Position numbers and translations under genes: made by a program. Of a DNA stretch of 64,000 nt, positions 6,043 through 61,810 are shown piece by piece (the stretch's first letter is position 1; each line of letters starts with the position of its first letter). The notes below the pieces were generated by a model. It was not told the DNA's origin and did not search any database. It saw only the letters and a program-made list of their open reading frames with translations. Origin of the DNA: Clostridia bacterium (GTDB lineage Bacteria > Bacillota > Clostridia > Acetivibrionales > UBA4821); NCBI GenBank assembly GCA_041687355.1, contig JAWLCD010000010.1:2371-66370 (forward strand), written 5' to 3'.

Positions 6043-6165
6043 AATATCAAGTCATTCCCGACATTATTTTCTAAGATATTTTACTCGCTCAAGTGGGCAT
6101 TTATTACACCCGGTTTGCACATCAAGGGAATTTATGGGAAATAATTCAGTATGTCAGGCATAAAT

Positions 6166-6300
6166 ATAAACAGGATTCTTGGATTCAGGTGGAGTTTTTT
6201 TCTCCATCTGAATCTTAGAAGCCGTTATCCAGGGGCGTAGCGCCGCTTAGCTCCCGCTTGAAGAAGAGGGAGTCTTAGCGGCGGTAGTCATCGGATAAAA
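6166..6300 (+). repeat. RepA copy A1 (core only, 135 nt)
   Basis: ATAAACAGGATTCTTGGATTCAGGTGGAG...CTCCATCTGAATCTTAGAAGCCGTTATCCAGG..GTAGCGCCGCTTAG..GGAGTCTTAGCGGCGGTAGTCATCGGATAAAA. Sits in the divergent gap upstream of ldcA. Confidence 0.9.
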
Positions 6301-6325
6301 CAAACCAATTTAAGGGCACAAGAAT

Positions 6326-7325: not shown

Positions 7326-7334
7326 TTTGGTTAA

Positions 7335-7412
7335 GGGAAATGAATTAACTGGAGAATAAGTTTATGGAGAAATCTGATTTCGTAATCCTTATGAGCTGTT
7401 AATTTATTTCCC
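7335..7412 (+). repeat. RepB copy B2 (minimal form; arms joined at the GAAATC-T-GATTTC palindrome)
   Basis: GGGAAATGAATTAACTGGAGAATAAGTTTATGGAGAAATCTGATTTCGTAATCCTTATGAGCTGTTAATTTATTTCCC. Confidence 0.8.
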
Positions 7413-9063: not shown

Positions 9064-9307
9064 ATAAACAGGATTCTAAGATTCAGGTGGAGTTTTGGCT
9101 AATAATTTCTTGTTATCTTTGATAACTTAGAAATCATTGTCCACCTTGTGTGCTCCAACTGAATCTTAGAATCCGTTATCCAGGAACGTAGCACCGCCGT
9201 AGACTACTAGTCGCTTGATTTCGAAGAAATCTTAGCGATAGTGTCCATCTTTGATGCTCCCACTTGAATGAGAGGGGAGTCTTAGCGGTGGTAGTCATCG
9301 GATAAAA
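9064..9307 (+). repeat. RepA copy A2 (244 nt; 54-nt modules in both hairpin apices: 9101-9154 and 9203-9256)
   Basis: Same core as A1 plus two insertions. Lies between rsmD and pdp. Confidence 0.9.
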
Positions 9308-9401
9308 ATCCTACTGATTATTTTATAATACATCTGGGAAATGTCAATTGTTTTTAGTTAAACCTTAGCTTGATTATGGAGATTCCCCCTTGTGATTTGA
9401 G

Positions 9402-9473
9402 AGGAAATGAATTAACCGGCGAATAAGTTTACCTTGATTTCGCAGTCCTTATGAGCGGTTAATTTACTTTCCC
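9402..9473 (+). repeat. RepB copy B3 (minimal form)
   Basis: AGGAAATGAATTAACCGGCGAATAAGTTTACCTTGATTTCGCAGTCCTTATGAGCGGTTAATTTACTTTCCC. Confidence 0.8.
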
Positions 9474-9529
9474 TGACTGATAAGAAAAAGGAGCTAAGGG
9501 TGCAATCCTTAACTCCTTCAGCATTAATT

Positions 9530-10834
9530 TCAAGATATAACATCAACAATCAGCGGCATCGGTTCAGGCTTTCTTTCATCTATTGTATACGCTCCCACAA
9601 TCAGTTCCTGGGCCGGCTGCACCCTGTGTTCATGATTGGAATACATCCAGGCCAACGTATCTCCCGCCTTAACCTCATCTCCGATTTTCTTCTCAAGTAC
9701 TATCCCAACATTGAGTTCAATCTCAGAATCCTTGGTTTCCCTTCCAGCTCCAAGCAGCATGGAGGCAACCCCTATAGAGTCGGTCTTCATTTTGGTTATA
9801 TAGCCGTCTCTGGGAGCCTTTACAGGAAGTTTAAGCCTTGCTTCGGGGAACAATGAAGGGTCATCAACCACCTTCACGTCACCTTCCTGATTAATTACCA
9901 TTTCCCTGAATTTCTCAAATGCCTTACCGTTATCCAGCAGACCTTTCAACTCCTCTTTAATCGCATCTATATCCTGTGTCCTGCCTGAGAGTTTGAGCAT
10001 GTATGCTCCAAGGACCAGACAGAGCTCTTCCAGGTCTTTGGGTCCTTTCCCTTTAAGAGTTTGGATAGCTTCCTTCACTTCAAGCGTATTGCCTACTGCA
10101 TATCCCAGGGGCTGGTCCATGTTTGACACCACTGCTACTGTATTCCTCTTCAGGTTTTTTCCTATACTCACCATAACTTTCGCCAGTTCCTTTGCATGGC
10201 TCAGTACTCTCATAAAAGCACCACTGCCGGTTTTCACATCCAGCACTATGGCATCGGCTCCACCGGCAATCTTTTTGCTCATTATACTACTGGCTATCAA
10301 GGGAATACTGCCTACAGTCGCAGTTACATCCCTCAGTGCATAGAGCTTCTTGTCGGCAGGTACCAGGTTTCCGGTCTGACCGGCCAGTGCAATCTTTATA
10401 CGATTGACTCCATCAATCAGCTTATGCATGGGAATATCCGTCCTGAACCCGGGTATGGATTCAAGCTTGTCTATTGTCCCGCCGGTATGGCCAAGGCTCC
10501 TTCCCGACATTTTAGCCACAGGTATGCCTGCCGCAGCTACAAGTGGAGCAACAATCAGTGTAGTTTTGTCACCTACTCCCCCCGTACTGTGCTTGTCTAC
10601 CTTTATTCCCTTTATTTCTGATAAATCAACCATGTCTCCCGATTGTGCCATCTGTATTGTAAGTTCAGCAGTCTCACCCTGATCCATGCCATTCAGGTAT
10701 ATGGCCATCATAAGAGCAGAGGCCTGGTAATCAGGAATTTTGCCGCTGCTGAAGCCGGAGATAAAAAATTTAATTTCATCAGGAGTTAATTCCTTGCCAT
10801 CCCTTTTCTTTTCAAGAATATCGTACATTCTCAT
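9530..10834 (-). CDS. pdp: pyrimidine-nucleoside phosphorylase
   Basis: Contains [12 protein letters not shown] and [16 protein letters not shown]. Start moved to the ATG at 10834 ([13 protein letters not shown]), which has an AGGGGG RBS. The longer ORF would overlap yraN. Confidence 0.93.
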
Positions 10835-10845
10835 AACATTACCCC

Positions 10846-11214
10846 CTAGAAGGCGTTTTTGAGCAGGTTTATATCCATACATTTCCTGCCTTCCTTACTA
10901 TTATCCATCATTACTTCAACAACGTCAAACCTAAAATTGGTGTTGACCAGTTTCTTTAGTGCCAGATAAGTCTGTGCAACCTTTATCAGCGTTTTCTGTT
11001 TTTTCAGGTTTACTGATTCAGCCGGAAAACCATAGTGAGAGTTACTTCGGGTCTTAACCTCAATAAACACAATATACTGTCCATCCATGCCGATAATATC
11101 AATCTCACCAAGCCTGCATCTGAAGTTGGTTTGTAGAATCCTGTATCCCCTGGTCTTTAAGTATTCAGCAGCTGCTTTTTCTCCGGCCTTTCCCAGTTCA
11201 GTCCTGTAAGCCAT
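10846..11214 (-). CDS. yraN: YraN family (UPF0102) endonuclease-like protein
   Basis: Contains [32 protein letters not shown] and VFIEVKTR. Start at 11214 has a GGGAGAAGGA RBS. Confidence 0.88.
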
Positions 11215-11491
11215 ATTTTCCTTCTCCCTTAAGCTTATCAATATCGCTCACAAATACCAGAATCTCTGCAACAATCTCGTACAGTTCCTCCGGGATTTCG
11301 TCTCCGATTGAAAGTGTGTTCAAAATATGTGCAAGCTCTGGATTCTCGTATACAGGTACATTATTGTTCTGTGCAGTTTCAAGAATCTTCTCGGCAATTT
11401 CACCCTTCCCCAGAGCTACGACTTTCGGTGCTGATTCATCCGTATTATACTTTAGAACTGCCGCCTCTTTAATCTTCTTTTTCTGCTCCAT
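11198..11491 (-). CDS. ylqH: FlhB C-terminal-domain-like protein (EscU/YscU/HrcU family, YlqH-type)
   Basis: 97 aa with AAVLKYNTDESAPKVVALGKGEIAEKILETAQNNNVPVYENPELA...IGDEIPEELYEIVAEILVFV. No TM region and no NPTH site. Confidence 0.88.
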   Translation of the reverse strand: MEQKKKIKEAAVLKYNTDESAPKVVALGKGEIAEKILETAQNNNVPVYENPELAHILNTLSIGDEIPEELYEIVAEILVFVSDIDKLKGEGKYGLQD

Positions 11492-11493
11492 GT

Positions 11494-13119
11494 TTACACC
11501 CTCATATCAAACGAAAGTCTTTTAGTCCTGCCACTCAGAACCAGAACCTTATCCATCTCCGGCAGGCCAGTCTTTTTCTGAATAATCCCACAGTCAATAT
11601 TAACTATACTGTATCCCTTCTGGTTCAAGGCCTCTACCAAACTTGTTGTATTCTCCCTGATGAGCGAAGCAATCTCTTCATCCTGCACCCTGAAAGTAAA
11701 TCCTACAGCTCTGCCTGTGAGATTCACAAGCACCTCAGTCAGGCCTATGTTGGGCATCTGAAGTGACATTAGAATACTTGCATTGGATGGGTCAATTTTT
11801 TTTCGGGATTTTTTGAGAATATACAGCTCGCCGTTGGTATGCTGCCCCCAAATGTTAAGTGGTATTTGTATGAAAGTATTGTACTGGCTCATGCTGTTCA
11901 TGAACCTTATATTCTCCTCGGCCTGCCCGGTAAGCGCAAGCATTTCGTTCCTGCCTTCCCCTGTAGATAACACTCCCTTAAGGATATCCAGTTTAACAAG
12001 TATTTCCTTATACGAAGCACTGACCTGGAGGTCTTTTGCCAGGGTTTCAGATTTATTGCTTACAAAGTGCTTTTCAAATACCGCCTTAATCTCTTCCCTG
12101 ACATGTTCGGTACTGGCCCTGACTTCAGGTTGTTTTAAGTCAGTTTTATATATTTCTTCAGTCTTAATTTTCAATATTTGCTGGAACAGATTTTTTAGAG
12201 CTTCAGGCAGTTTGCCCAGAAAATTCTGGACACCATTTGGCTCAATGTTGTTAATCTGTTGTTTGAGCTGGTGGGTATTGAGATTATTAATCTCGCTTCG
12301 TATTTCAGGCAAACCATTTTTAATTTGCTGGTCAATACTATCAAGTAAAGCCTGCTTGATTGCCGGCAGGATGTCTTTACCGATTTGCGTCAAGGCCTCT
12401 GAACCCTGCGATTGTCCACTGGTCTGCAGCCCCTGTACTTCTTTATGCAAAGCAGCAGCCGTATGTCCAACTGCTGAGTTTTTCTTTGGAAGAGCTGAAA
12501 GTTTTTCGTACAGCATCACTATTTCAGTTTCGCTTAAATTGTCAATCAGATTAGTTATTGCCCTTAGCTGATTTCCCAGTACTGCCTTACCTTCTGTATA
12601 TTGGGCAAGCATGCCTATACTCTTCTCATTAGGCTCAATTCCCCTGCAAGTCAGGAATACAGCTTTCTGAACATCGAGTCCAGGGTTCTTTGAAATATGG
12701 TTAAGAACTGCTTGGACTCTTTCCCTGGTTACAGGCAGTTCGCGGGCTGTCAGTTCGTTAATTATTTCAACATTTCTCGGATTATTGGATAGATTCAGAG
12801 ACGCTAGAAGGCTATTTAACTGCTCCCTGCTCAGAGCACTTAATGAATTGCCAGGATTACTCTTCAGTGTTTCGATAAAGATTTTTCCGTCCCTTTTTTC
12901 ATTTATGATAAAGTCGACTACCTTTCCTTCCGTGAGTTCCAATGGAATCAGCATATTGGCAGTTACCGGTTTTCCTTCACCTATAGAGAGAATAACCTCA
13001 CTTCCTGATTTGCTAACAACCTGAGCACGGATAACATCTCCAACCTTGGCCTTTGCCAGTAATTTACCGGCCTCGAGTTCAAGTATATGTGCAATGGGTC
13101 TCAAACCATTAACCTTCAT
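11494..13119 (-). CDS. FliK-like (flagellar hook-length-control C-terminal domain-like) protein, YlqG-position
   Basis: 541 aa with a low-complexity, Q/N/S-rich middle. The C-terminal region (NIWGQHTNGELYIL...LVNLTGRAVGFTFRV) resembles Flg_hook. Adjacent to the FlhB-like gene. Confidence 0.6.
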   Translation of the reverse strand: MKVNGLRPIAHILELEAGKLLAKAKVGDVIRAQVVSKSGSEVILSIGEGKPVTANMLIPLELTEGKVVDFIINEKRDGKIFIETLKSNPGNSLSALSREQLNSLLASLNLSNNPRNVEIINELTARELPVTRERVQAVLNHISKNPGLDVQKAVFLTCRGIEPNEKSIGMLAQYTEGKAVLGNQLRAITNLIDNLSETEIVMLYEKLSALPKKNSAVGHTAAALHKEVQGLQTSGQSQGSEALTQIGKDILPAIKQALLDSIDQQIKNGLPEIRSEINNLNTHQLKQQINNIEPNGVQNFLGKLPEALKNLFQQILKIKTEEIYKTDLKQPEVRASTEHVREEIKAVFEKHFVSNKSETLAKDLQVSASYKEILVKLDILKGVLSTGEGRNEMLALTGQAEENIRFMNSMSQYNTFIQIPLNIWGQHTNGELYILKKSRKKIDPSNASILMSLQMPNIGLTEVLVNLTGRAVGFTFRVQDEEIASLIRENTTSLVEALNQKGYSIVNIDCGIIQKKTGLPEMDKVLVLSGRTKRLSFDMRV

Positions 13120-13160: not shown

Positions 13161-13335
13161 ATAAACAGGATTCTTGGATTCAGGTGAAGTTTCTCCAACT
13201 GAATCTTAGAAGCCGTTATCCAGGAACTTATCGCCGCTTAGATTACTAGTCGCTTGATTTCAAAGAAATCTTAGCGATAGTGTCCATCTTTGATGCTCCC
13301 GAAGGGAGTCTTAGCGGCGGTAGTCATCGGACAAA
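13161..13335 (+). repeat. RepA copy A3 (175 nt; 54-nt module in hairpin 2 at 13242-13295)
   Basis: Lies between the FliK-like gene and rnhB. It contains the rnhB stop codon. Confidence 0.9.
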
Positions 13336-14031
13336 TCTTCTGGTGAAGCTCCTTCTATGTAATGGACATAAGCCCTTTCGTCTTATTGCTTCAATATGCT
13401 CTGCCGTACCATATCCCTTGTGCCTGGCAAATCCGTAGCCTTCATGTATTTTATCAATTTCTATAATCATTCTGTCTCTTGTAACCTTTGCAATTATGGA
13501 TGCAGCAGCAATGGACTGACTCAATGAGTCGCCTCTTACCATTGGTTTCTGCGGTACTTCTATATCTTCAAGACTTTCAGCATCAATAAACAGCACTTCG
13601 GGCTTAACCTCAAGCTGCTCCACAGCCTTCCTCATTGCAAGCCTGGTTGCGTTTAATATGTTTATTTCATCTATAATATTATTATCGACAATTCCAACTC
13701 CCCAGGCCACTGCTTCCCTTACAATAACATCAAACAATTCTTCCCTTTTCTTTTCACTTAATTTCTTCGAGTCATTGACCCCTTCTATCAATAAACCCTT
13801 TGGAAGTATGACGGCAGAAGCAACAACTGGGCCAGCAAGTGGCCCTCTACCTGCCTCGTCAATTCCGGCGATATATGTTATTCCATTGAGGTATTCTTCA
13901 TCCTCATACTGCATCAGTTTATGCAGCCTGTCCAGCTCTTTCTGTAGATACTTGCTGCCCTCTTTTGACCTTGTAGTAGTCTTTATTAGCTTATACTCCA
14001 CTTTTATCCCCCAATACTTCAGGCTCTTCAA
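13324..14031 (-). CDS. rnhB: ribonuclease HII
   Basis: Contains IAGIDEAGRGPLAGPVVASAV and DSKKLSEKKRE. The stop codon lies inside the 3' end of RepA copy A3. Confidence 0.94.
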   Translation of the reverse strand: MKSLKYWGIKVEYKLIKTTTRSKEGSKYLQKELDRLHKLMQYEDEEYLNGITYIAGIDEAGRGPLAGPVVASAVILPKGLLIEGVNDSKKLSEKKREELFDVIVREAVAWGVGIVDNNIIDEINILNATRLAMRKAVEQLEVKPEVLFIDAESLEDIEVPQKPMVRGDSLSQSIAAASIIAKVTRDRMIIEIDKIHEGYGFARHKGYGTAEHIEAIRRKGLCPLHRRSFTRRFVR

Positions 14032-14911: not shown

Positions 14912-14926
14912 ATTTCTTTAACGAAC

Positions 14927-14951
14927 GTGACAGAGAACCGTCCCCTGTCAC
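14927..14951. repeat. RepH hairpin H2
   Basis: GTGACAGAGAACCGTCCCCTGTCAC. Confidence 0.85.
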
Positions 14952-14968
14952 GTTTTAAGAAAAGAAAA

Positions 14969-14997
14969 GTGAGTCAAGGAACCGTCCCCTGACTCAC
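14969..14997 (-). terminator. rplS intrinsic terminator formed by RepH hairpin H3
   Basis: GTGAGTCAAGGAACCGTCCCCTGACTCAC. On the minus-strand RNA the hairpin is followed by UUUUCUUUUCUU. It starts 8 nt after the rplS stop. Confidence 0.8.
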
Positions 14998-15004
14998 TTT
15001 TATG

Positions 15005-17245: not shown

Positions 17246-17297
17246 GTTATATTCACCTCCTTTCGATGCGCAAAAATGGTTATAAGCTTCGTATAAC

Positions 17298-17484
17298 TTA
17301 TCCGATGATTACCGCCGCTAAGACTCCACTCTTCTTCATCTGGGAGACAAGCGGCGCTACGTCCCTGGATAACGGCTTCTAAGATTCAGATAAAGCACAC
17401 AAGGTGGACAATGATTTCTAAGTTATCAAAGATAACAAGAAATTATTAGCCAAAACTCCTCCTGAATCCAAGAATCCTGTTTAT
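17298..17484 (-). repeat. RepA copy A4 (187 nt, inverted orientation; 54-nt module in hairpin 1 at 17394-17447)
   Basis: Reverse complement of the RepA core. Lies between rpsP and ffh and contains the ffh stop codon. Confidence 0.9.
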
Positions 17485-18827
17485 CTAAAGAAAGGCATGT
17501 TGAACATTCCTTTCTTGGATTTCGTCATTGAGGTCATCTGCTTCATCATCTTTCTTAGTTCCTCAAATCGTTTTAGCAAACTGTTGATATCCTGTATGTT
17601 GGTGCCGCTTCCTGAAGCTATCCTTCTTTTCCTGCTGGCGTTGATTATTGAAGGGTCAACCCTTTCTTTCTTTGTCATTGACTGGATAATAGCCTCAAAA
17701 TGCACCAGCTTCTTTTCGTCTATATCTATACCCTTGAGCTGTTTAGGGGAGAGTCCGGGCATCATGCCAAGAATCTGGTCCAGAGGACCGATATTCTTCA
17801 TCTGCTGCATCTGTTCCAGAAAGTCTTCCAGTGTAAACTGCTGGGAGCGCAGCCTCTTCTCCATCTCCAGAGCTTTCTTTTCATCAAATACTTCCTGAGC
17901 TTTCTCTATTAAGCTCATTACATCTCCCATACCCAGAATTCGTGATGCCATTCTTTCAGGGTAGAAGGGTTCAAGCTCATTAAGTTTTTCACCCATACCG
18001 GCAAATTTTATGGGCTTCCCTGTAACTGTCTTTACAGAAAGTGCTGCACCGCCGCGAGTATCACCATCAAGCTTGGTTAGAACAATTCCATCAACCCCCA
18101 GTTTATCATTGAATGATTGAGCAACGTTAACAGCATCCTGACCGGTCATCGAATCGACCACAAGCAGTATTTCATGCGGTCTCACCGCTGACCTGATATC
18201 AACCAATTCGTTCATGAGTTCCTGGTCTATATGCAGTCTTCCCGCCGTATCGATAATAACAAGGTCGTATCCTTTGCTCTCTGCATGACCAAGCGCCTTA
18301 CGTGCAATTTCAACCGGCTTTTTACTATCATGATCTGCATATACGGGAATATCTAGCTGTTTACCTATAACCTCAAGCTGTTTAATGGCGGCCGGCCTGT
18401 ATACGTCACAGGCTGCCATCAACGGATTTTTTCCCTGTTTCCTCAGAAGCCCGGACAGTTTTCCACTTGTTGTGGTCTTACCTGAACCCTGAAGGCCAAC
18501 CATCATTACAACCGTCGGCGGCCTTGGGGAGAAAGATATCCGGCTTTCAGTTCCTCCAAGCAGTGCAACAAGTTCATCATGAATAATCTTTATAACCTGC
18601 TGACCTGGAGTCAGGCTCTCAAGTACATCCTGGCCAACTGCCTTCTGAGATACTATACCAATAAAGTCCTTCACTACTTTAAAGTTTACGTCAGCCTCCA
18701 GAAGAGCCAGCTTCACTTCTCTCATAACTTCTTTTATGTCTGATTCGGTTACTCTTGCCTTCCCTTTAAACTTTTGCACTATATTCTGCAGTTTTGAAGC
18801 CAATCCTTCAAATACCAAAATCATCAC
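17481..18827 (-). CDS. ffh: signal recognition particle protein
   Basis: GLQGSGKTTT, DTAGR and TKLDGD, with a Met-rich M domain. The stop codon lies in the terminal ATAAACAGG of RepA copy A4. Confidence 0.98.
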   Translation of the reverse strand: MMILVFEGLASKLQNIVQKFKGKARVTESDIKEVMREVKLALLEADVNFKVVKDFIGIVSQKAVGQDVLESLTPGQQVIKIIHDELVALLGGTESRISFSPRPPTVVMMVGLQGSGKTTTSGKLSGLLRKQGKNPLMAACDVYRPAAIKQLEVIGKQLDIPVYADHDSKKPVEIARKALGHAESKGYDLVIIDTAGRLHIDQELMNELVDIRSAVRPHEILLVVDSMTGQDAVNVAQSFNDKLGVDGIVLTKLDGDTRGGAALSVKTVTGKPIKFAGMGEKLNELEPFYPERMASRILGMGDVMSLIEKAQEVFDEKKALEMEKRLRSQQFTLEDFLEQMQQMKNIGPLDQILGMMPGLSPKQLKGIDIDEKKLVHFEAIIQSMTKKERVDPSIINASRKRRIASGSGTNIQDINSLLKRFEELRKMMKQMTSMTKSKKGMFNMPFFR

Positions 18828-32430: not shown

Positions 32431-32499
32431 AATATTAAATGGCTACTTATACTATCAATTGAATCACAATTTATTTCCTTGTACTGAATTAATCAAACA

Positions 32500-32524
32500 G
32501 TGACAAGGAACCGTCCCCTGTCAC
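32500..32524 (-). terminator. RepH hairpin H4 overlapping the nfnB stop codon (putative terminator)
   Basis: GTGACAAGGAACCGTCCCCTGTCAC. The U-tract on the minus strand is weak (UGUUUGAUU). Confidence 0.6.
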
Positions 32525-33942
32525 ACTTTCTTTGTCCTGATGTACTCATCAATAGACTTTGCTGCCTTTTTCCCGGCTCCCATGGCCTGGATAACAGTAG
32601 CTGCACCGGTTACAATATCTCCTCCGGCAAACACACCTTCCCTGCTTGTACGGCCTGTAGACTCGTCAGCCACAATGCCTCCATGCCTGGTAAGCTCTAA
32701 CCCAACGGTAGTACCAGCTATCAAAGGATTAGGGGTTGTCCCTATGGACATTATAACCGTTTCTACTTCGATTACGTGCTCAGAGCCCTGCTTTTCCACA
32801 GGCCTTCTTCTTCCGGATGCATCCGGTTCTCCGAGCTCCATTTCAATGCACTCCAGACCTTTCACCCATCCATCATCAGTCCCCAGTATTCTGACCGGGT
32901 TGGTGAGCAGTCTGAACTCAATACCTTCTTCCTTTGCATGATGCACCTCTTCCCGTCTGGCAGGCATCTCATCCTCAGACCGCCTGTATACTATATAGAC
33001 CTTATCAGCCCCCATCCTGACAGCACAGCGGGCGGCATCCATTGCAACATTTCCGCCTCCAACCACTGCAACCCTTCTACCCACCCTGACTGGTGTATCG
33101 CATTCAGGGAACCTGTAAGCTTTCATTAAATTTATTCTGGTTAGAAACTCGTTTGCAGACATCACACCGTTAAGACTTTCACCCGGTATATTCATGAATG
33201 CCGGAAGGCCTGCTCCCGAGCCAATAAAGACTGCATCATACCCCTGGGTGAATAGTTCATCAATACTCACTATTTTTCCAACAACCATGTTGGTTTTTAT
33301 TTCAACTCCCAGTTTTTTAACACTCTCAATATCTTTCTGAACAATATCCTTTGGAAGCCTAAATTCAGGGATTCCATACATCAGCACCCCTCCGGGTACA
33401 TGAAAAGCTTCAAAAACTGTAACCTTGTAACCTGACTTTGCAAGGTCTCCGGCGCATGTAATTCCTGCTGGACCGGAACCTACTACCGCTACTTTTCCCT
33501 TATTCTCATCTCGTTCCAGACTACAGGCTTCCTCTTCTACTCCCTGTGTACTGCCACCGCAGTAGTCGGCAGCAAAACGCTCAAGCCTTCCGATGCCAAC
33601 CGGTTCACCCTTCTTGCCTCTAAGACAGTACTTCTCACACTGACTCTCCTGTGGGCATACCCTGCCGCAAACAGCCGGTAAGCTGTTGGTTTCTATAATC
33701 TTTCTGTACGCTTTGTCAAACTCCTTTTTCTGTATTAGTTTTATGAACTCGGGTATTTGAACATTTACTGGACAACCTTGCACACACGGTGAGTTTTTAC
33801 ACTGCAGACAGCGCATAGCTTCCTCGACAGCCTGCTCCTGAGTGTACCCTAGTGCGACCTCTTCAAAATTCTTATTTCTAACCTCAGGCTCCTGTTCAGG
33901 GATAGGAACCTTTTTCTCCGACATATTAGGCATTTTCGTCAC
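32521..33942 (-). CDS. nfnB: NADH-dependent reduced ferredoxin:NADP+ oxidoreductase subunit B (GltD/SudA-like, 'homotetrameric glutamate synthase')
   Basis: 473 aa with two Cys clusters (CLQCKNSPCVQGCP, CGRVCPQESQCEKYC) and two GxGxxG dinucleotide folds (VVGSGPAG, VVGGGNVA). Confidence 0.88.
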   Translation of the reverse strand: MTKMPNMSEKKVPIPEQEPEVRNKNFEEVALGYTQEQAVEEAMRCLQCKNSPCVQGCPVNVQIPEFIKLIQKKEFDKAYRKIIETNSLPAVCGRVCPQESQCEKYCLRGKKGEPVGIGRLERFAADYCGGSTQGVEEEACSLERDENKGKVAVVGSGPAGITCAGDLAKSGYKVTVFEAFHVPGGVLMYGIPEFRLPKDIVQKDIESVKKLGVEIKTNMVVGKIVSIDELFTQGYDAVFIGSGAGLPAFMNIPGESLNGVMSANEFLTRINLMKAYRFPECDTPVRVGRRVAVVGGGNVAMDAARCAVRMGADKVYIVYRRSEDEMPARREEVHHAKEEGIEFRLLTNPVRILGTDDGWVKGLECIEMELGEPDASGRRRPVEKQGSEHVIEVETVIMSIGTTPNPLIAGTTVGLELTRHGGIVADESTGRTSREGVFAGGDIVTGAATVIQAMGAGKKAAKSIDEYIRTKKV

Positions 33943-34771
33943 CCCTTATCCTGCACCTGTGTTCCTCAAGTGAATGCTTTTCTTCATTTTTGTACATATT
34001 CTGTCTTCTCATTGCCTCGTCGAAATCCACAAGGTGTCCGTCAAATTCGGGACCGTCAACACATGCGAACCTGGTCTCTCCTCCAACCGTCAGCCTACAG
34101 CCGCCGCACATTCCAGTTCCGTCTATCATAATAGGATTCATGCTTACAACGGTCGGTATACCGTATTCCTTAGTCAGATTGCTTACAACTTTCATCATAA
34201 TTAGTGGACCAACCGCAACCACACGATCATACTTGTTTCCGTCTTCAATAAGTTTTCTAAGTACATCGGTTACAAAGCCCTTTTGCCCTTTTGAGCCATC
34301 ATCTGTAGCTATATAAACATTTTCACAGTAAGGCCTTATTTCTTCCTCAAGTATTATCAGTTCCGCATTCCTGGCACCAATAATGACGTCAACCCTTGTT
34401 CCGTTTCTATGCATTTCTTTTACCTGTGAGAATATTAAGGCTGTCCCAAGACCCCCACCTATTACTGCCACCCTCTCAAGACTGTCCAGTTCTGTAGGCT
34501 TGCCCAATGGGCCAACCAAATCCAGAATGGTGTCACCCTCTTCGAGCTGGCCTAACAGCTCTGTTGTTTTTCCCACTTCCTGAAATATTATGGTGATTGT
34601 CCCTTTTTCAAAGTTGTAATTAGATATGGTAAGGGGTATTCTTTCTCCCTCTTTACTGACTCGAACCATGACAAACTGGCCGGGCTTTGCCTTCTCAGCC
34701 ATTATACGGTTTTGCACTTCAATAAGTTTTATGGCTGGAGCAAGTACTCTTTTGGTTAAAATTCTATTCAA
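33926..34771 (-). CDS. nfnA: NfnA / ferredoxin-NADP+ reductase-like subunit (SudB-like)
   Basis: 281 aa with an FNR-like fold and the [2Fe-2S] motif CGGC...C (GTGMCGGCRLTVGGETRFACVDGPEF). Overlaps nfnB by 17 nt. Confidence 0.85.
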   Translation of the reverse strand: MNRILTKRVLAPAIKLIEVQNRIMAEKAKPGQFVMVRVSKEGERIPLTISNYNFEKGTITIIFQEVGKTTELLGQLEEGDTILDLVGPLGKPTELDSLERVAVIGGGLGTALIFSQVKEMHRNGTRVDVIIGARNAELIILEEEIRPYCENVYIATDDGSKGQKGFVTDVLRKLIEDGNKYDRVVAVGPLIMMKVVSNLTKEYGIPTVVSMNPIMIDGTGMCGGCRLTVGGETRFACVDGPEFDGHLVDFDEAMRRQNMYKNEEKHSLEEHRCRIRGDENA

Positions 34772-34857
34772 TATACCAACCCCCTTCTGAAAGATTATAG
34801 TACAAGTGAGTCAAAGATTTCAATCAAAAAATTAAAGGAGTTTCCTCTTCGGGTTTA

Positions 34858-34891
34858 GGGGAAATGAATTAACTAGTGAATAAGTTTATGG
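34858..34891 (+). repeat. RepB left-arm fragment (B5)
   Basis: GGGGAAATGAATTAACTAGTGAATAAGTTTATGG. No right arm is present. It abuts the recO stop codon. Confidence 0.6.
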
Positions 34892-40998: not shown

Positions 40999-41060
40999 TG
41001 TCAAGGGGACGGGGTTGTTGACAACTTTCTAAAGTTGTTAACAACCCCGTCCCCTTGACA
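40999..41060. repeat. 62-nt near-perfect palindrome carrying the GGGGACGG motif
   Basis: TGTCAAGGGGACGGGGTTGTTGACAACTTT-CT-AAAGTTGTTAACAACCCCGTCCCCTTGACA. The arms are 30 nt with 1 mismatch. Confidence 0.85.
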
Positions 41061-48804: not shown

Positions 48805-49488
48805 TCAGGGACTGACTACAGTACCGGTCTGACCGATACCCCTGGCCAGCCTTGTAAGCCTCTGCCATGTAGCGCATCCAACGATGCCGTCTGCGGTAAG
48901 CCCCTGTGAGGCCTGAAAATTGATTACAGCCTGCTGAGTCCCGGGACCAAATACGCCATCAAGACCTGAGCCCGTAAACCCTACTGCATTCAGCGCATCC
49001 TGGAGAACAAGAACATATACGCCCCTGCTTCCAAGTGACTGCTGAGGATAACCTCCGCCAGGACAGGCAGGAGGACCGATTCTCCTGTCGACGTGAACCC
49101 AGGTAGGAGTTAAGTAAGCCGGTTCTACGTATGACCATACCCCGGAGTTTATTGCGGTCTGCCGGAGCTGGTTCCTGGTTGCAGGGTCCAGAACCTGCCC
49201 CATATCAAGGGCTGTTCCTGCATAATGCTGGGACTGGAAGCCATGTCCCCCTTCCCAGATTCTCTTAAAAGCAAAGCCTACATATATACTTCTTCCCCAT
49301 AATCTCCTGAAGACATTCCATGCATCCATTACCCTCCGGTCGGTCCAGAGCACATTAGCCCTCGAGCTGCCTCTAAATTCATTTACAGTGAGTGTCCCTC
49401 CGATATTATACGGCATGGGTTCAAATTCTTCTCTTTCATATCTTTCTATCGCATTTGTCTGAGGATTATATACAAGTATTACAGCCAA
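48805..49488 (-). CDS. peptidase M15-like (zinc D-Ala-D-Ala carboxypeptidase fold) protein with C-terminal peptidoglycan-binding domain
   Basis: H-x6-D (QHYAGTALD) and WVHVD motifs. The C-terminal PG_binding_1-like region is LQDALNAVGF..LDGVFGPGTQQAVINFQASQGLTADGIVG. Confidence 0.7.
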   Translation of the reverse strand: MAVILVYNPQTNAIERYEREEFEPMPYNIGGTLTVNEFRGSSRANVLWTDRRVMDAWNVFRRLWGRSIYVGFAFKRIWEGGHGFQSQHYAGTALDMGQVLDPATRNQLRQTAINSGVWSYVEPAYLTPTWVHVDRRIGPPACPGGGYPQQSLGSRGVYVLVLQDALNAVGFTGSGLDGVFGPGTQQAVINFQASQGLTADGIVGCATWQRLTRLARGIGQTGTVVSP

Positions 49489-49508
49489 AATAAATACCTC
49501 CCGATTTT

Positions 49509-49553
49509 AAGGTAGGGGGACGCGACCATTCGCTTCGCTCAAGGAACGTCCCC
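49509..49553 (+). repeat. RepE copy E4 (best stem GGGGACG/CGTCCCC)
   Basis: AAGGTAGGGGGACGCGACCATTCGCTTCGCTCAAGGAACGTCCCC, 5' of B4. Confidence 0.75.
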
Positions 49554-49610
49554 TTCTGATTATAGGGAAGATGAATTTAACTGGCGAATAAGTTTGCGGA
49601 GAAATCTTAG

Positions 49611-49741
49611 ATAAACAGGATTCTTGGGTTCAGGTGGAGTTTTGGCTCCAACTGAATCTTAGAAGCCGTTATCCAGGGACGTAGCGCCGCTTTTCTATAA
49701 TATTAAAGCTGGAGTCTTAGCGGCGGTAGTCATCGGATAAA
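49611..49741 (+). repeat. RepA copy A5 (core only, 131 nt), nested inside RepB copy B4
   Basis: The core sequence is flanked by the RepB left arm and RepC. Confidence 0.9.
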
Positions 49742-49753
49742 TTATGCGAAGTT

Positions 49754-49853
49754 ATGCTCAAATTTCAGGAAGAATTGACAGGACGTCAATTCTAGGAATT
49801 ATTGAGCCACGATGGCGAATTAATTCCGGTCTGAAATTTAGTATAACAAGCAT
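49754..49853 (+). repeat. RepC copy C2
   Basis: Differs from C1 at only a handful of positions. Confidence 0.75.
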
Positions 49854-49958
49854 CTAGTTTATCTTGATTTCGCAGTCCTTATGAGTTGCTAATTCATTTT
49901 CCCTAACTAATGAATTACCCCTTAATCACATTATATGACCTGCGTATCGGGAGGGTTC

Positions 49959-50137
49959 ATAAACAGGATTCTTGGATTCAGGTGGAGTTTTTGGCTCCAT
50001 CTGAATCTTAGAAGCCGTTATCCAGGGACGTAGCGCCGCTTAGACTACTAGTCGCTTGTTTTCAAAGAAATCTTAGCGATAGTGTCCATCTTTGATGCTC
50101 CCGAGGGGAGTCTTAGCGGCGGTAGTCATCGGATAAA
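49959..50137 (+). repeat. RepA copy A6 (179 nt; 54-nt module in hairpin 2 at 50044-50097)
   Basis: Core plus module. Lies just upstream (on the + strand) of the yebC terminator hairpin. Confidence 0.9.
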
Positions 50138-50145
50138 CTGCAAAA

Positions 50146-50187
50146 GGACAGGAACAGTAGCACAATATTGTGATACTGTTCCTGTCC
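50146..50187 (-). terminator. yebC terminator
   Basis: GGACAGGAACAGTA..TACTGTTCCTGTCC (14-bp stem plus an inner palindrome). On the minus strand it is followed by UUUUGCAGUUU. Confidence 0.8.
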
Positions 50188-50221
50188 CCCTGACATAAAA
50201 GGCTAAAATGTATGCTTACCC

Positions 50222-50947
50222 CTACTCCTGCTCCCAGTTGTGATACACGCTCTGCACATCATCATTGTCCTCAAGCTTCTCAATAAGAATCTCCATCTTC
50301 TTTGCCGCTTCCTCATCAAGCTTCACATAGTTTTGCGGGAGCATCTGGATTTCAGCTGTCGAAAAAACTATGCCCTTACCCTCAAGCTCCTCACGCACCT
50401 TTGAAAAATCCTCAGGCACAGTAATTATCTCAAAATACTCGTCCTCAGCATTAAAGTCCTCTGCCCCGGCTTCGAGAGCAAGCATCATAAGGGAGTCCTC
50501 CTCGACACCTTCATTTTTATCAACAAGGATTAACCCTTTCTTGTCAAACATCCAGGCAACAGAACCGGTTGTTCCAAGGTTACCCCCGTACTTATCAAAG
50601 AGATGCCTCATCTCTCCGGCCGTCCTGTTCCTGTTATCGGTCATGGCTTCAACAATTACCGCCACACCGCTGGGTCCATAGCCTTCATACACAATTTCCT
50701 CATAACCGGCACCATCTGCTTCACCCGAAGCCTTCTTGATGCTCCTCGTTATGGTATCATTAGGCATATTTGAAGCCTTTGCCTTAGCTATTACATCCCT
50801 GAGCCTTGTATTGGCATTTGGGTCAGGCCCGCCTTCCTTTACAGCTACTGCAATTTCTCTACCCAGTTTGGTAAATACCTTGCCTCTCTGGGCATCGGTT
50901 GATTCTTTCCTGCGTTTGATATTGGCCCACTTCGAATGTCCCGACAT
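50222..50947 (-). CDS. yebC: YebC/PmpR family DNA-binding transcriptional regulator
   Basis: [32 protein letters not shown]. Confidence 0.96.
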
Positions 50948-52595: not shown

Positions 52596-53087
52596 TTGTA
52601 CTCTAATGAACTGCAGCAATCCATGCGCTGTGAACCTGAGATACCCGGTCTGGGAACTACCAGCAGCATATGGTTCTATCTTAAACACCCTCTGAAGGCA
52701 GCAGATAAAAAAAGACATACACTTAAGCTGTTGATTGAGAGTACGAAGGTTTTCTGGCGCCATTTGGCCGTGTCACATTCAACTGACACTATAACAACTC
52801 TAAAAGATTTGACCGAACAGGTAGACAAGCAGGCTGTGCAATTCGAAACCGAATACGCATCCTATGTTTATTTATGTAGGTATATTGAATACGTATTCGG
52901 CCAATGGATTGGAACCGAGGAACATTTAAACTGCGGCGATTTCTGGGACATAAAGTATTCAGTTATCCACCATATTGAACCAGGAAAACTTAACGACGAG
53001 TTTAAAAAACATAATCAAGCCTGTAAAGAGGAACTGGAGAGGCTCAGAAGTATAATCAACAAAGATAAAATGGACAAATCATCATGA
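52596..53087 (+). CDS. hypothetical ~163-aa protein (no recognisable domain)
   Basis: The ORF opens at 52572. TTG at 52596 is 9 nt after GAAGGGAGG, and the ATG at 52587 is too close to the RBS. A terminator hairpin follows at 53107-53131. Confidence 0.55.
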   Translation: MYSNELQQSMRCEPEIPGLGTTSSIWFYLKHPLKAADKKRHTLKLLIESTKVFWRHLAVSHSTDTITTLKDLTEQVDKQAVQFETEYASYVYLCRYIEYVFGQWIGTEEHLNCGDFWDIKYSVIHHIEPGKLNDEFKKHNQACKEELERLRSIINKDKMDKSS

Positions 53088-53106
53088 AAAAATTGCGACA
53101 ATACTC

Positions 53107-59895: not shown

Positions 59896-60084
59896 ATAAA
59901 CAGGATTCTTAGGTTCAGGTGGAGTTTTAGGCTAATAATTTCTTGTTATCTTTGATAACTTAGAAATCATTGTCCACCTTGTGTGCTCCGACTGAATCTT
60001 AGAAGCCGTTATCCAGGGACGTAGCGCCGCTTCTCCCTCACTTGAAGAAGAGGGGAGTCTTAGCGGCGGTAGTCATCGGATAAA
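59896..60084 (+). repeat. RepA copy A7 (189 nt; 54-nt module in hairpin 1 at 59934-59987)
   Basis: Fills the whole gap between the two PP2C genes. Confidence 0.9.
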
Positions 60085-60085
60085 A

Positions 60086-61810
60086 TTATTTTGCTTCCAG
60101 CAGAATAAATGAGACATCATCATTGAATCTGTCCTGGCAGGTAAATTGTTTCAGGTCACACACAATGGACTCAACTATTCTGTCCAAACTATTTCCGGAA
60201 TTTTCCGCAATTAGTTTTTCGAGCTTATCCCTGCCGTACCTGCTGCCCAGTAAATCCTCAGAATCTACCAAGCCATCGGTATACAACAGTATCCTGTCCC
60301 CAGTGTTAAGTTTTAAAAGCTTGTCTTCAAAATCTCCAGGAACCAGTCCCGGCAGTTTACATATGGGAAAACCCCCGGTCTTAAGGTACTTAGCAGTTCC
60401 CCCAGAATTGAATACTATAGGGATAGTATTCATCCCTGCAGAACAGAACCTGAAATCTTTTGTTCGAAGGTTATAAACTGCATAAAATAAGCCTATATAC
60501 ATATCTTCATCAAAACTGCTGTAGTTAAAGGCGTCGTACACCATTCTCTGAACCTGAGCGGGAGCAGACAAATCATACCTGCCTGTTAAATTATCCTTCT
60601 GAACCGCTGATGCTATGGTCTGATTCACAAACATTGTCAGCATAGCAGCCCGGACACCATGCCCGGATACATCTCCAATGTATATGCCTATATTTTCTTC
60701 ATCCACCCTGATAACTCTGCAAAAGTCACCGCCCAGAGCCTGGCATGGCCTGTACTCCACATAGAATTCCATACCTTTCAGGCAGAAGTGGCTGGCCGGA
60801 ATCATTTTCATCTGTATGTTCTTTGCTATTTCAATATCACTTAAAAGTTTTTCATTTACCCTGCCTATTTCAAATGTTTTTTCAGTTATGAGTGCTTCAA
60901 GGTTTTCGGTATGCTCTTCAAGCTTCTCCCTTGCAAGGTCTAGCTCACTGTATGGCTTTTGAACATAGCAGAAAAAAATTGCTCTGAACAGAAGATATCC
61001 AGCTCCTACCCTGAGCAGTAGAGCCGCATAATTAAAGGAATGTCCTACTTCAGGGGAAAGTTCATAAAGAAAATGGCTCGATATGCTGCATACTATCGAA
61101 AGAACTATGAAACCGATATGCTTTTCGTGCTGCTTGAGGTATTCTCTGGCTAATAATACGGCTGCCAGAAAGTAACAGATTATTATAAGCCATCTTAAGC
61201 CGAAATAGTTTATAACCGGATTGCCTGGTGGGCTGCTGTAGAATGATTCAAGTATGGTACAAATACTTCCTATATTATTGGCTATTAGAAAATATATCCC
61301 TAATATTCCGATGACTGCAGCCAGTATCGTAGGAATTACAATGGAATTTCTCCTGATTGTGGTGACTGCGTCAACTCCTATCAGGGCAAAAACTATAAGC
61401 CCTGCTGATTTTATCAACCTTCCAGCAAAGTATGCAGTCTGGGCAAAAAAATAATCCGGCTGGTTTAATTTCTCAACCTCAAGATATGCAAGCATATGCA
61501 CAGTATCAAGAATTGCCACAACTAAAAAGATTAAACAAAGAGTAATTGTCCTTACTCTTTTGGTATGGGTAAAAGCATGGTAAGTAGAAAGGAATATTAC
61601 TATTGAGAACATCACACTCATGGAGTCAAAAAGAGTATGCCAGATAAATTCCAACTTATAATAGCTCAGCAGGATATTAGCTGCATCAATTAATGCAGCA
61701 CACAGTATTATCACCATTAAAGGCTTGAAAATCACCTTGTATCTGTCCAGCATCCTGCCTGCTGTACTTATTAAGACTGTTCCATCTTTCATTCCGTCTC
61801 GACCCCACAC
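60086..61810 (-). CDS. membrane sensor (MASE3-like) SpoIIE/PP2C-family protein phosphatase
   Basis: 574 aa, multi-pass N-terminus. Canonical motifs are present: LGGDFCRV, GDVSGHGVRAAM, LYTDGLVD and NDDVSFILL. Confidence 0.85.
   Translation of the reverse strand: MWGRDGMKDGTVLISTAGRMLDRYKVIFKPLMVIILCAALIDAANILLSYYKLEFIWHTLFDSMSVMFSIVIFLSTYHAFTHTKRVRTITLCLIFLVVAILDTVHMLAYLEVEKLNQPDYFFAQTAYFAGRLIKSAGLIVFALIGVDAVTTIRRNSIVIPTILAAVIGILGIYFLIANNIGSICTILESFYSSPPGNPVINYFGLRWLIIICYFLAAVLLAREYLKQHEKHIGFIVLSIVCSISSHFLYELSPEVGHSFNYAALLLRVGAGYLLFRAIFFCYVQKPYSELDLAREKLEEHTENLEALITEKTFEIGRVNEKLLSDIEIAKNIQMKMIPASHFCLKGMEFYVEYRPCQALGGDFCRVIRVDEENIGIYIGDVSGHGVRAAMLTMFVNQTIASAVQKDNLTGRYDLSAPAQVQRMVYDAFNYSSFDEDMYIGLFYAVYNLRTKDFRFCSAGMNTIPIVFNSGGTAKYLKTGGFPICKLPGLVPGDFEDKLLKLNTGDRILLYTDGLVDSEDLLGSRYGRDKLEKLIAENSGNSLDRIVESIVCDLKQFTCQDRFNDDVSFILLEAK

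Follow-up and report, generated by a model that had tools for sequence, protein, structure and literature searches.

The stretch analyzed here, hereafter the window, covers 64,000 nucleotides (nt) of contig JAWLCD010000010.1 from a Clostridia bacterium (GenBank assembly GCA_041687355.1). A 733-nt gap at positions 49489-50221 separates the stop codon of yebC (50222-50947, - strand; TACO1/YebC domains) from the start of a gene for a protein with a peptidoglycan-binding domain (48805-49488, - strand), to which protein P0121 is 100% identical. An earlier note on this DNA described the gap as lying upstream of yebC; the - strand orientation of yebC puts it downstream of that gene and upstream of the peptidoglycan-binding one. 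The gap contains nested copies of short repeats, designated RepA, RepB, RepC, and RepE. The left and right arms of RepB form, together with RepC, a single ~225-nt unit of the TwoAYGGAY RNA family (Rfam ID RF01731), of which the RepB arms are the very long closing stem. RepA is a previously undescribed gene-less mobile element of 120 to 240 nt, consisting of two long hairpins, and is represented in the gap by two copies, A5 and A6. The modules are where the earlier note had placed them, with repeat-finder matches to other copies far above chance. The features of the gap are as follows.

49509-49562, + strand: RepE, a 53-nt sequence repeat that often adjoins the 5' end of a TwoAYGGAY-type unit
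49563-49610, + strand: 5' strand of the long P1 stem (RepB-left), ending in ...GAAATCTTAG; from the alignment of paralogs L031 and L049, a BLAST census, and the fold
49611-49736, + strand: RepA copy A5, short form, with the element-borne ATAAA and the two-hairpin core CAGGATTC...GTCATCGG; from the covariance model
49737-49741, + strand: ATAAA pentamer targeted in the host unit (- strand: TTTAT), within the 5' strand of P1; from unfilled paralogs
49742-49853, + strand: TwoAYGGAY core (RepC), with the inner stem and hairpins 1 and 2; from Rfam RF01731
49771-49793, + strand: hairpin 1 of the TwoAYGGAY core, loop AGGAC
49796-49826, + strand: hairpin 2 of the TwoAYGGAY core, loop ACGAU
49854-49904, + strand: 3' strand of the long P1 stem (RepB-right), which pairs with 49563-49610 in the fold and is also found in L001
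49905-49958, no strand: unique spacer, whose sole match is the orthologous stretch of L001 (96%)
49959-50132, + strand: long-form RepA copy A6, in which hairpin 2 contains an additional module of ~57 nt; a recent insertion
50133-50137, + strand: ATAAA pentamer targeted by A6 (- strand: TTTAT), directly 3' of the yebC terminator; from the empty-site comparison with L001
50139-50194, - strand: hairpin terminating the yebC transcript, a perfect inverted repeat conserved in L001; context, outside the repeats

When the block (636 nt) was folded as RNA, the nested drawing of the earlier note was reproduced: the RepB arms pair around the two RepA hairpins and a three-way junction, with -239.7 kcal/mol (z -10.8) for the + strand and -202.6 kcal/mol (z -7.3) for the - strand. 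A tRNA or tmRNA origin was looked for, and none was found.

The TwoAYGGAY host unit

The RF01731 model matches positions 49731-49878 with 56.8 bits and positions 1178-1305, elsewhere in the window, with 45.5 bits, both above the Rfam gathering score of 43. RepA-free paralogs of the unit are present in two of the related contigs (which carry L numbers throughout), L031 and L049, both from the nearest sequenced relative, Clostridia bacterium 30dZY2.bin.108, a metagenome-assembled genome (MAG) with 3x coverage. These score 71.1 and 65.9 bits, compared to 48.6 to 56.8 bits for the interrupted copies, and in them the outer stem of the model aligns GAGAAAUCUUAGAUAAACUA with UAGUUUAUCUUGAUUUC. The P1 closing stem is frequently very large in this family (Weinberg 2010 supplement, PMC2864571); in the host unit, it extends to about 45 to 50 positions, the arms 49563-49610 and 49854-49904 pairing in the RNA fold and those of a paralog in the DNA fold. 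The host unit passes the curated score and, like other members of the family, has two hairpins side by side and a P1 stem of great length. It differs in the loop sequences, which are AGGAC and ACGAU in the gap and AGGAC twice at 1178-1305 rather than AYGGAY (hairpin 2 in L024 has the canonical loop, AUGGAU), and for this reason is filed as a divergent member. A further difference is that the unit is dispersed in multiple copies, which include deletion and replacement variants, and is interrupted by RepA. A role as a CsrA sponge has been proposed for TwoAYGGAY on the basis of its GGA loops (PMC4333381).

Within the window, the RepB arms match arms at 1073-1116/1288-1343, 7328-7412, and 9400-9474, and RepC is 92% identical to 1184-1341. 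The earlier note regarded RepB as a carrier of exchangeable cargo, having found its arms directly joined in two other copies (B2 and B3) and enclosing RepD plus RepC in a third (B1). Both descriptions are correct, and the content between the constant arms does vary from copy to copy, being RepC, RepA plus RepC, RepD plus RepC, the GC-rich RepF, or nothing. RepC, however, is no cargo, as RepB is the P1 stem of the same RNA, and RepD is not a repeat family, as no second copy of it is seen in 725 kb of the window and related DNA. The arms-only copies (7328-7412, 9400-9474, L038:5429-5512, and L005:2118-2182) are joined at short direct repeats of the full unit (GTTTAT, ATCT), which suggests internal deletions between such repeats rather than empty vehicles.

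RepF is a GC-rich CCCTCCC/GGGAGGG hairpin module that replaces the RepC core between the same arms in L019 (650-815) and L038 (330-515); beside it are a RepA remnant, GTCATCGGATAAA, in L038 and a 5'-truncated RepA in L019. A lone RepB-left fragment, with no matching right arm, is located at 34848-34891, ~80 nt upstream of the start of the open reading frame (ORF) 33926..34771(-). Besides the gap copy, RepE occurs 5 times in the window and 4 times in related contigs (these include 1023, 7281, 56783, and 56830 in the window and copies in L007, L023, and L038), and it adjoins the 5' end of the host unit at three window loci and in L023 and L038. We rejected RepE as a structured RNA, its fold z-scores being only -2.3 to +0.8, which is not significant. 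Short perfect hairpins at 14922-15000, 32495-32529, and 40999-41060 share AAGGAAC(C)GTCCCC or its complement with RepE and may form a further repeat or terminator family.

RepA copies and empty sites

A covariance model built from 27 RepA copies recovers the two gap copies at exactly 49611-49741 (A5, full length; 153.7 bits, E 1e-34) and 49959-50137 (A6; 125.7 bits). The seven RepA copies in the window have in common an invariant core, in which the two long hairpins are joined by CCGUUAUCC, and vary by optional modules of ~55 nt located at the tip of hairpin 1 (9064-9306, 17297-17484, and 59896-60084) or inside hairpin 2 (9064-9306, 13161-13335, and 49959-50137). These modules, never seen outside RepA, repeat the element's own submotif, a stem ending in CUUAG followed by ...GU.UCCA, and the long forms therefore look like internal unit duplications. 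The A6 stretch 49995-50137 is 94% identical over 143 nt to 13193-13335, which belongs to the RepA copy at 13161-13335. In single-copy folds, A5 reaches -50.5 kcal/mol (z -5.4) and the copy at 6164-6302 reaches -68.7 kcal/mol (z -7.6).

The model finds 61 matches in 379 kb, and ~50 RepA occurrences are solo. In an alignment of these 61 copies, which lie in the window and in 48 genome contigs, that was fitted to the covariance model, which favors pairing, standard pairs occupy 98% of the cells at 32 pairs, and 10 pairs show compensatory changes, e.g., CGCCGC/GCGGCG versus CAGUGC/GCACUG; a MAFFT alignment gives the same covariation. None of 500 shuffles and no slid register matched these pairing and covariation values. 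Rfam searches with RepA, on either strand, returned nothing at the gathering score or at E values up to 5, and RepA is therefore neither a described RNA family nor a TnpB or IscB guide RNA.

A 21-mer from the RepA core occurs in 48 contigs of a 185,579-species genome set. About 36 of these come from a single relative, 30dZY2.bin.108, and the remaining ones from other uncultured Clostridia, Clostridium brassicae, a Lutispora genome, and one genome labeled Deltaproteobacteria. A degenerate 23-mer was found in 52 metagenome contigs and in no viral contig, and BLAST searches with the gap had no match in 72,556 plasmids or in phage collections. Three RepA copies in the window, 13161-13335, 17297-17484, and 59896-60084, directly adjoin or run into the stop codons of three ORFs, 13324..14031(-), 17481..18827(-), and 60086..61810(-), respectively; these insertions may have reshaped the 3' ends of the three genes.

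In the closest genome (L001, with YebC 97% identical), A6 is cleanly absent inside the contig: L001 reads GTTC ATAAA TGTC where the window reads GTTC ATAAA, A6, ATAAA CTGC. The unfilled host paralogs in L031 and L049 read GAAATCTTAG ATAAA CTATGCGAAG, with a single pentamer, and RepA is found at exactly that point in 8 complete composites (the window, L005, L009, L022, L023, L024, L033, and L041). Because the A6 site is empty in L001 and RepA-free host paralogs exist, RepA is taken to be still mobile, with A6 as a recent insertion. The absence of A6 from L001 and the RepA-free RepB-RepC-RepB paralogs also bear out the earlier view of the gap as a nest of separable modules and not a fixed unit; the orthologous block is not always of the same composition. 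The more distant L002 (YebC identity of 80%) has a gene for a beta-lactamase-fold protein (10726-11997) between yebC and the peptidoglycan-binding gene and none of the gap repeats at this locus, and so gives no insertion order.

A stretch of 8 nt between the yebC terminator stem and A6 differs between the window (50133-50150) and L001 (4592-4606). On the - strand, it reads CCTTTTGCAG in the window and CCCCCTGACA in L001, and the window form shortens the terminator stem and makes a U-run. This difference may be an insertion footprint or an independent change.

Pentamers and choice of site

The alignments show the flanking ATAAA pair to consist of one element-borne pentamer and one target pentamer, and not of a target-site duplication. 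Among 82 two-ended RepA copies, pentamers are identical on both sides in only 24 and unequal in 58. The left pentamer (in the + orientation of RepA) is subfamily specific: copies of the window subfamily have ATAAA there, and those of the metagenome subfamily have ATCAA or ATTAA. The right one is ATAAA, ACAAA, or GTAAA in both subfamilies. Two metagenomic cases of RepA nested within RepA, where CCCACTT-ATAGA-AGTGGG has become CCCACTT ATCAA, RepA, ATAGT AGTGGG, are particularly direct: in both, the host loop is complete without ATCAA or ATTAA, and the left pentamer is extra. From these nestings and the lineage-specific left pentamer, it follows that the element is ATNAA plus the core, placed immediately 5' of a target ATAAA. 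The composites have the same pattern, their left pentamers tracking the RepA lineage (ACAAA in L009 and L033, ATAAG in L024 and L041) and their right pentamers tracking the host, with ATATA of L033 resembling TTATA of the unfilled L049. Seen from the opposite strand, TTTAT comes first, followed by the core and a terminal TTTAT, which amounts to insertion 3' of a fixed pentamer. Head-to-tail arrays of RepA have one pentamer in common, as the end of the element recreates the target.

According to the earlier note, RepA had been inserted at the apex of RepB, and hairpin apices were its preferred sites. Neither statement agrees with the data: the RNA fold and the single-strand DNA fold both show the host ATAAA base-paired inside the P1 stem, and RepA adjoins ATAAA/TTTAT wherever it is present. 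Only one of the seven window copies lies inside a RepB; the other six are outside any RepB and always beside ATAAA or a one-mismatch variant. In favor of the apical reading, the two RepA-in-RepA nestings do sit in an apical loop.

A further claim of the same note, that the families interact, is upheld by the presence of two RepA lineages at the same site in different host copies. The RepA sequences of the composites form two clades, one with the window copy, L009, L022, and L033 and the other with L005, L023, L024, and L041, with identities of 90 to 99% within a clade and 80 to 84% between clades. These lineages show that the site in the host unit has been hit by more than one kind of RepA. 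Because the clades do not track the identities of the host parts and A5 is no closer to the RepA copies of composites than to solo ones, the same host site has been hit repeatedly or else homogenized by conversion. The composite is also inherited vertically, as the L023 and L024 copies are syntenic.

Mode of insertion

The explanation that we favor, with a probability of about 0.75, is that small noncoding repeats have piled up in the gap by target-specific insertion. The TwoAYGGAY host unit is itself multicopy in this lineage; A5 would have been inserted into the 5' strand of its stem, immediately beside ATAAA, and A6 later, beside another ATAAA just past the yebC terminator. Viewed on the opposite strand, and judging from the layout alone, insertion would have taken place 3' of a fixed pentamer, without duplication, in the manner of the peel-and-paste single-strand transposition of IS200/IS605-like elements. 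The arms-joined copies would have arisen via deletion between short direct repeats. More tentatively, and at slightly less than even odds, RepA might be moved in trans by an HUH-class single-strand-DNA nuclease transposase encoded elsewhere in the genome.

A parallel to such a mechanism is ISGst2, an IS605-family element of Geobacillus, whose experimentally defined target motif is TTTAT and for which gene-less derivatives mobilized in trans (PATEs) have been described (PMC10055086). RepA resembles the PATEs in its insertion 3' of a fixed pentamer without duplication, in ending in a similar motif, and in its gene-less copies, and possibly also in its hairpins at both ends and in a modest bias toward the lagging-strand template. 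At 41 of 58 sites, TTTAT precedes the element on the G-rich strand, which is the lagging-strand template; once duplicate contigs had been removed, the count was 41 of 64 sites (p 0.03), and 36 of 51 among the strongly skewed ones (p 0.005). Of the unfilled host copies, only that in L031 has an intact site, and it is oriented the other way, which is a single case. The differences from the PATEs are that neither TnpA nor TnpB was found near RepA copies in the 725 kb, that the RepA hairpins span the whole element and fold better on the nontransferred strand, and that RepA has no Rfam match to the TnpB or IscB guide-RNA families.

Several points weigh against the insertion model. The strand bias is modest, 64 to 71%. 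No transposase was found, and in the 725 kb no gene family recurs beside RepA, the recurrent neighbors being ordinary paralog families only (sigma-54 activators, ABC transporters, etc.); tblastn searches with IS200/IS608 TnpA queries had no match in the same 725 kb, a result that serves only as a lead. Typical IS200/IS605 ends have much smaller hairpins than RepA. The + strand of RepA, which would be the nontransferred strand in single-strand transposition, folds better by 11 to 15 kcal/mol and has 104 G.U versus 17 A.C pairs (57 versus 17 without one fixed pair). The expected mutation bias runs in the opposite direction, so that this preference points to selection on the RNA or DNA fold of the + strand. 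For the A5 site, only paralogous empty alleles are available, as the L001 contig ends inside RepC, an example of how these repeats break short-read assemblies. Finally, most of the comparison copies come from one 3x-coverage short-read MAG, in which repeats could be misassembled.

No autonomous RepA with a gene between its ends was found; a long left-to-right pair of RepA ends in L081 turned out to be spurious. The small ORFs of the window include no transposase. An IS110-type element with a bridge RNA was considered and rejected, as only ~5 nt of the target are conserved.

An alternative that we consider less likely but still live is a site-specific recombination-like reaction across a 5-nt core, carried out by a recombinase rather than an HUH transposase. 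Such a mechanism has been proposed for the TTTAT-flanked bcr elements, including bcr1 (PMC6542083, PMC6199540), and it would account for a similar pentamer at both junctions with a single copy at empty sites and for arrays with one pentamer in common; the better-folding strand need not be the transferred one. However, no recombinase gene is associated with RepA in the 725 kb, and the donor and target pentamers often differ at one or two positions (ATCAA versus ATAGT), which is unfavorable where an identical overlap is needed. The replication-strand bias is not predicted by it either.

Still less probable is the idea that the accessible apex of RepB serves as a generic site for the integration or expansion of RepA, RepC, and RepD. 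The same arms do hold RepC, RepA plus RepC, RepD plus RepC, RepF, or nothing, the nested RepA copies lie in apical loops, and the long RepA forms carry their extra modules at or near hairpin tips. However, arms and RepC score as a single Rfam family whose P1 stem is made up of the arms; RepA sits next to an ATAAA that is base-paired within that stem; all but one of the window RepA copies are outside RepB, beside ATAAA or a one-mismatch variant; and the junctions of the arms-only copies coincide with short direct repeats, as deletions predict.

It is scarcely credible that RepA is a classical miniature inverted-repeat transposable element that a DDE transposase moves by cut-and-paste, duplicating 5 bp of the target site. 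The window subfamily has ATAAA on both flanks and one copy at the empty site, but there are no terminal inverted repeats (the ends are CAGGATTC... and ...GTCATCGG, and CAGGATTCTTGG... and ...GGTAGTCATCGG do not form an inverted pair either), the pentamers are mostly unequal in a subfamily-specific manner, and the nestings show a left pentamer that was not copied from the target. Equally remote is the view that the RepB-RepA-RepC-RepB composite is one conserved functional RNA duplicated as a whole: the ~350-nt composite has 8 or more occurrences, with identities of 87 to 92%, occupies a syntenic locus in two MAGs (L023 and L024), and folds into one nested structure, but RepA-free versions exist and fit the Rfam model better, ~50 RepA occurrences are solo, and the RepA clades are incongruent with the host identities.

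A close match by description is bcr1, a group A repeat of the Bacillus cereus group: a gene-less element of ~155 bp with two independent stem-loops that show compensatory changes, TTTAT on both sides, presence that varies among close strains, and an unknown transposase (PMC3184786, PMC6199540, PMC6542083). RepA is similar in size, likewise gene-less, and has two compensated stem-loops and TTTAT on both sides; its presence, too, differs between close strains. In contrast to bcr1, which has been reported only from the B. cereus group, RepA is found in Clostridia MAGs, Clostridium brassicae, and Lutispora; furthermore, the literature on bcr1 speaks of a possible duplication, whereas the RepA pentamers are shown not to be one. 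RepA resembles both bcr1, compared by description only, and the gene-less IS200/IS605 derivatives, and we file it in neither group because of the host restriction of bcr1, the description-only comparison, and the missing transposase.

As a mosaic, the block brings to mind the repeat clusters of enterobacteria. REP units are palindromes of 20 to 40 nt with a dedicated transposase gene, and no such gene is seen here. ERIC elements of enterobacteria have internal insertion and deletion variants. BIMEs, which are built of REP units, resemble the present families in that several small structured repeats recur together in gaps in variable combinations (PMC3184786). BIMEs and ERIC elements differ from the repeats described here in sequence, size, and host phylum.

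The nesting as such is ordinary for target-specific repeats; what is new is the element family, RepA, with evidence of recent movement, in Clostridia from digesters and sediments. For bcr1-type repeats, whose mobility has been unexplained since 2004, RepA offers a clue, in that a target pentamer plus an element end suggests single-strand or site-specific insertion and not cut-and-paste transposition. As the host unit illustrates, TwoAYGGAY can take the form of a decaying repeat that is dispersed and repeatedly targeted by insertions, which bears on whether all of its instances are functional RNAs. It would be a long shot to propose that RepA and bcr1 belong to a widespread Firmicutes class of gene-less HUH-type single-strand transposons, in which the "TTTAT duplication" is a target plus an end motif, the two-domain fold of the nontransferred strand is a functional RNA, and the TwoAYGGAY stem is a preferred landing pad.

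Two observations concern the surroundings. Farther along the window, positions 52596-53106 could not be aligned with positions 1195-2136 of L001, a different gene being present there. At the junction of RepE and RepB-left, a promoter-like sequence, TCGCCA-17-TATAAT (49559-49587, - strand), faces the peptidoglycan-binding gene from a distance of ~70 nt, and the repeat may thus supply an outward promoter toward that gene.

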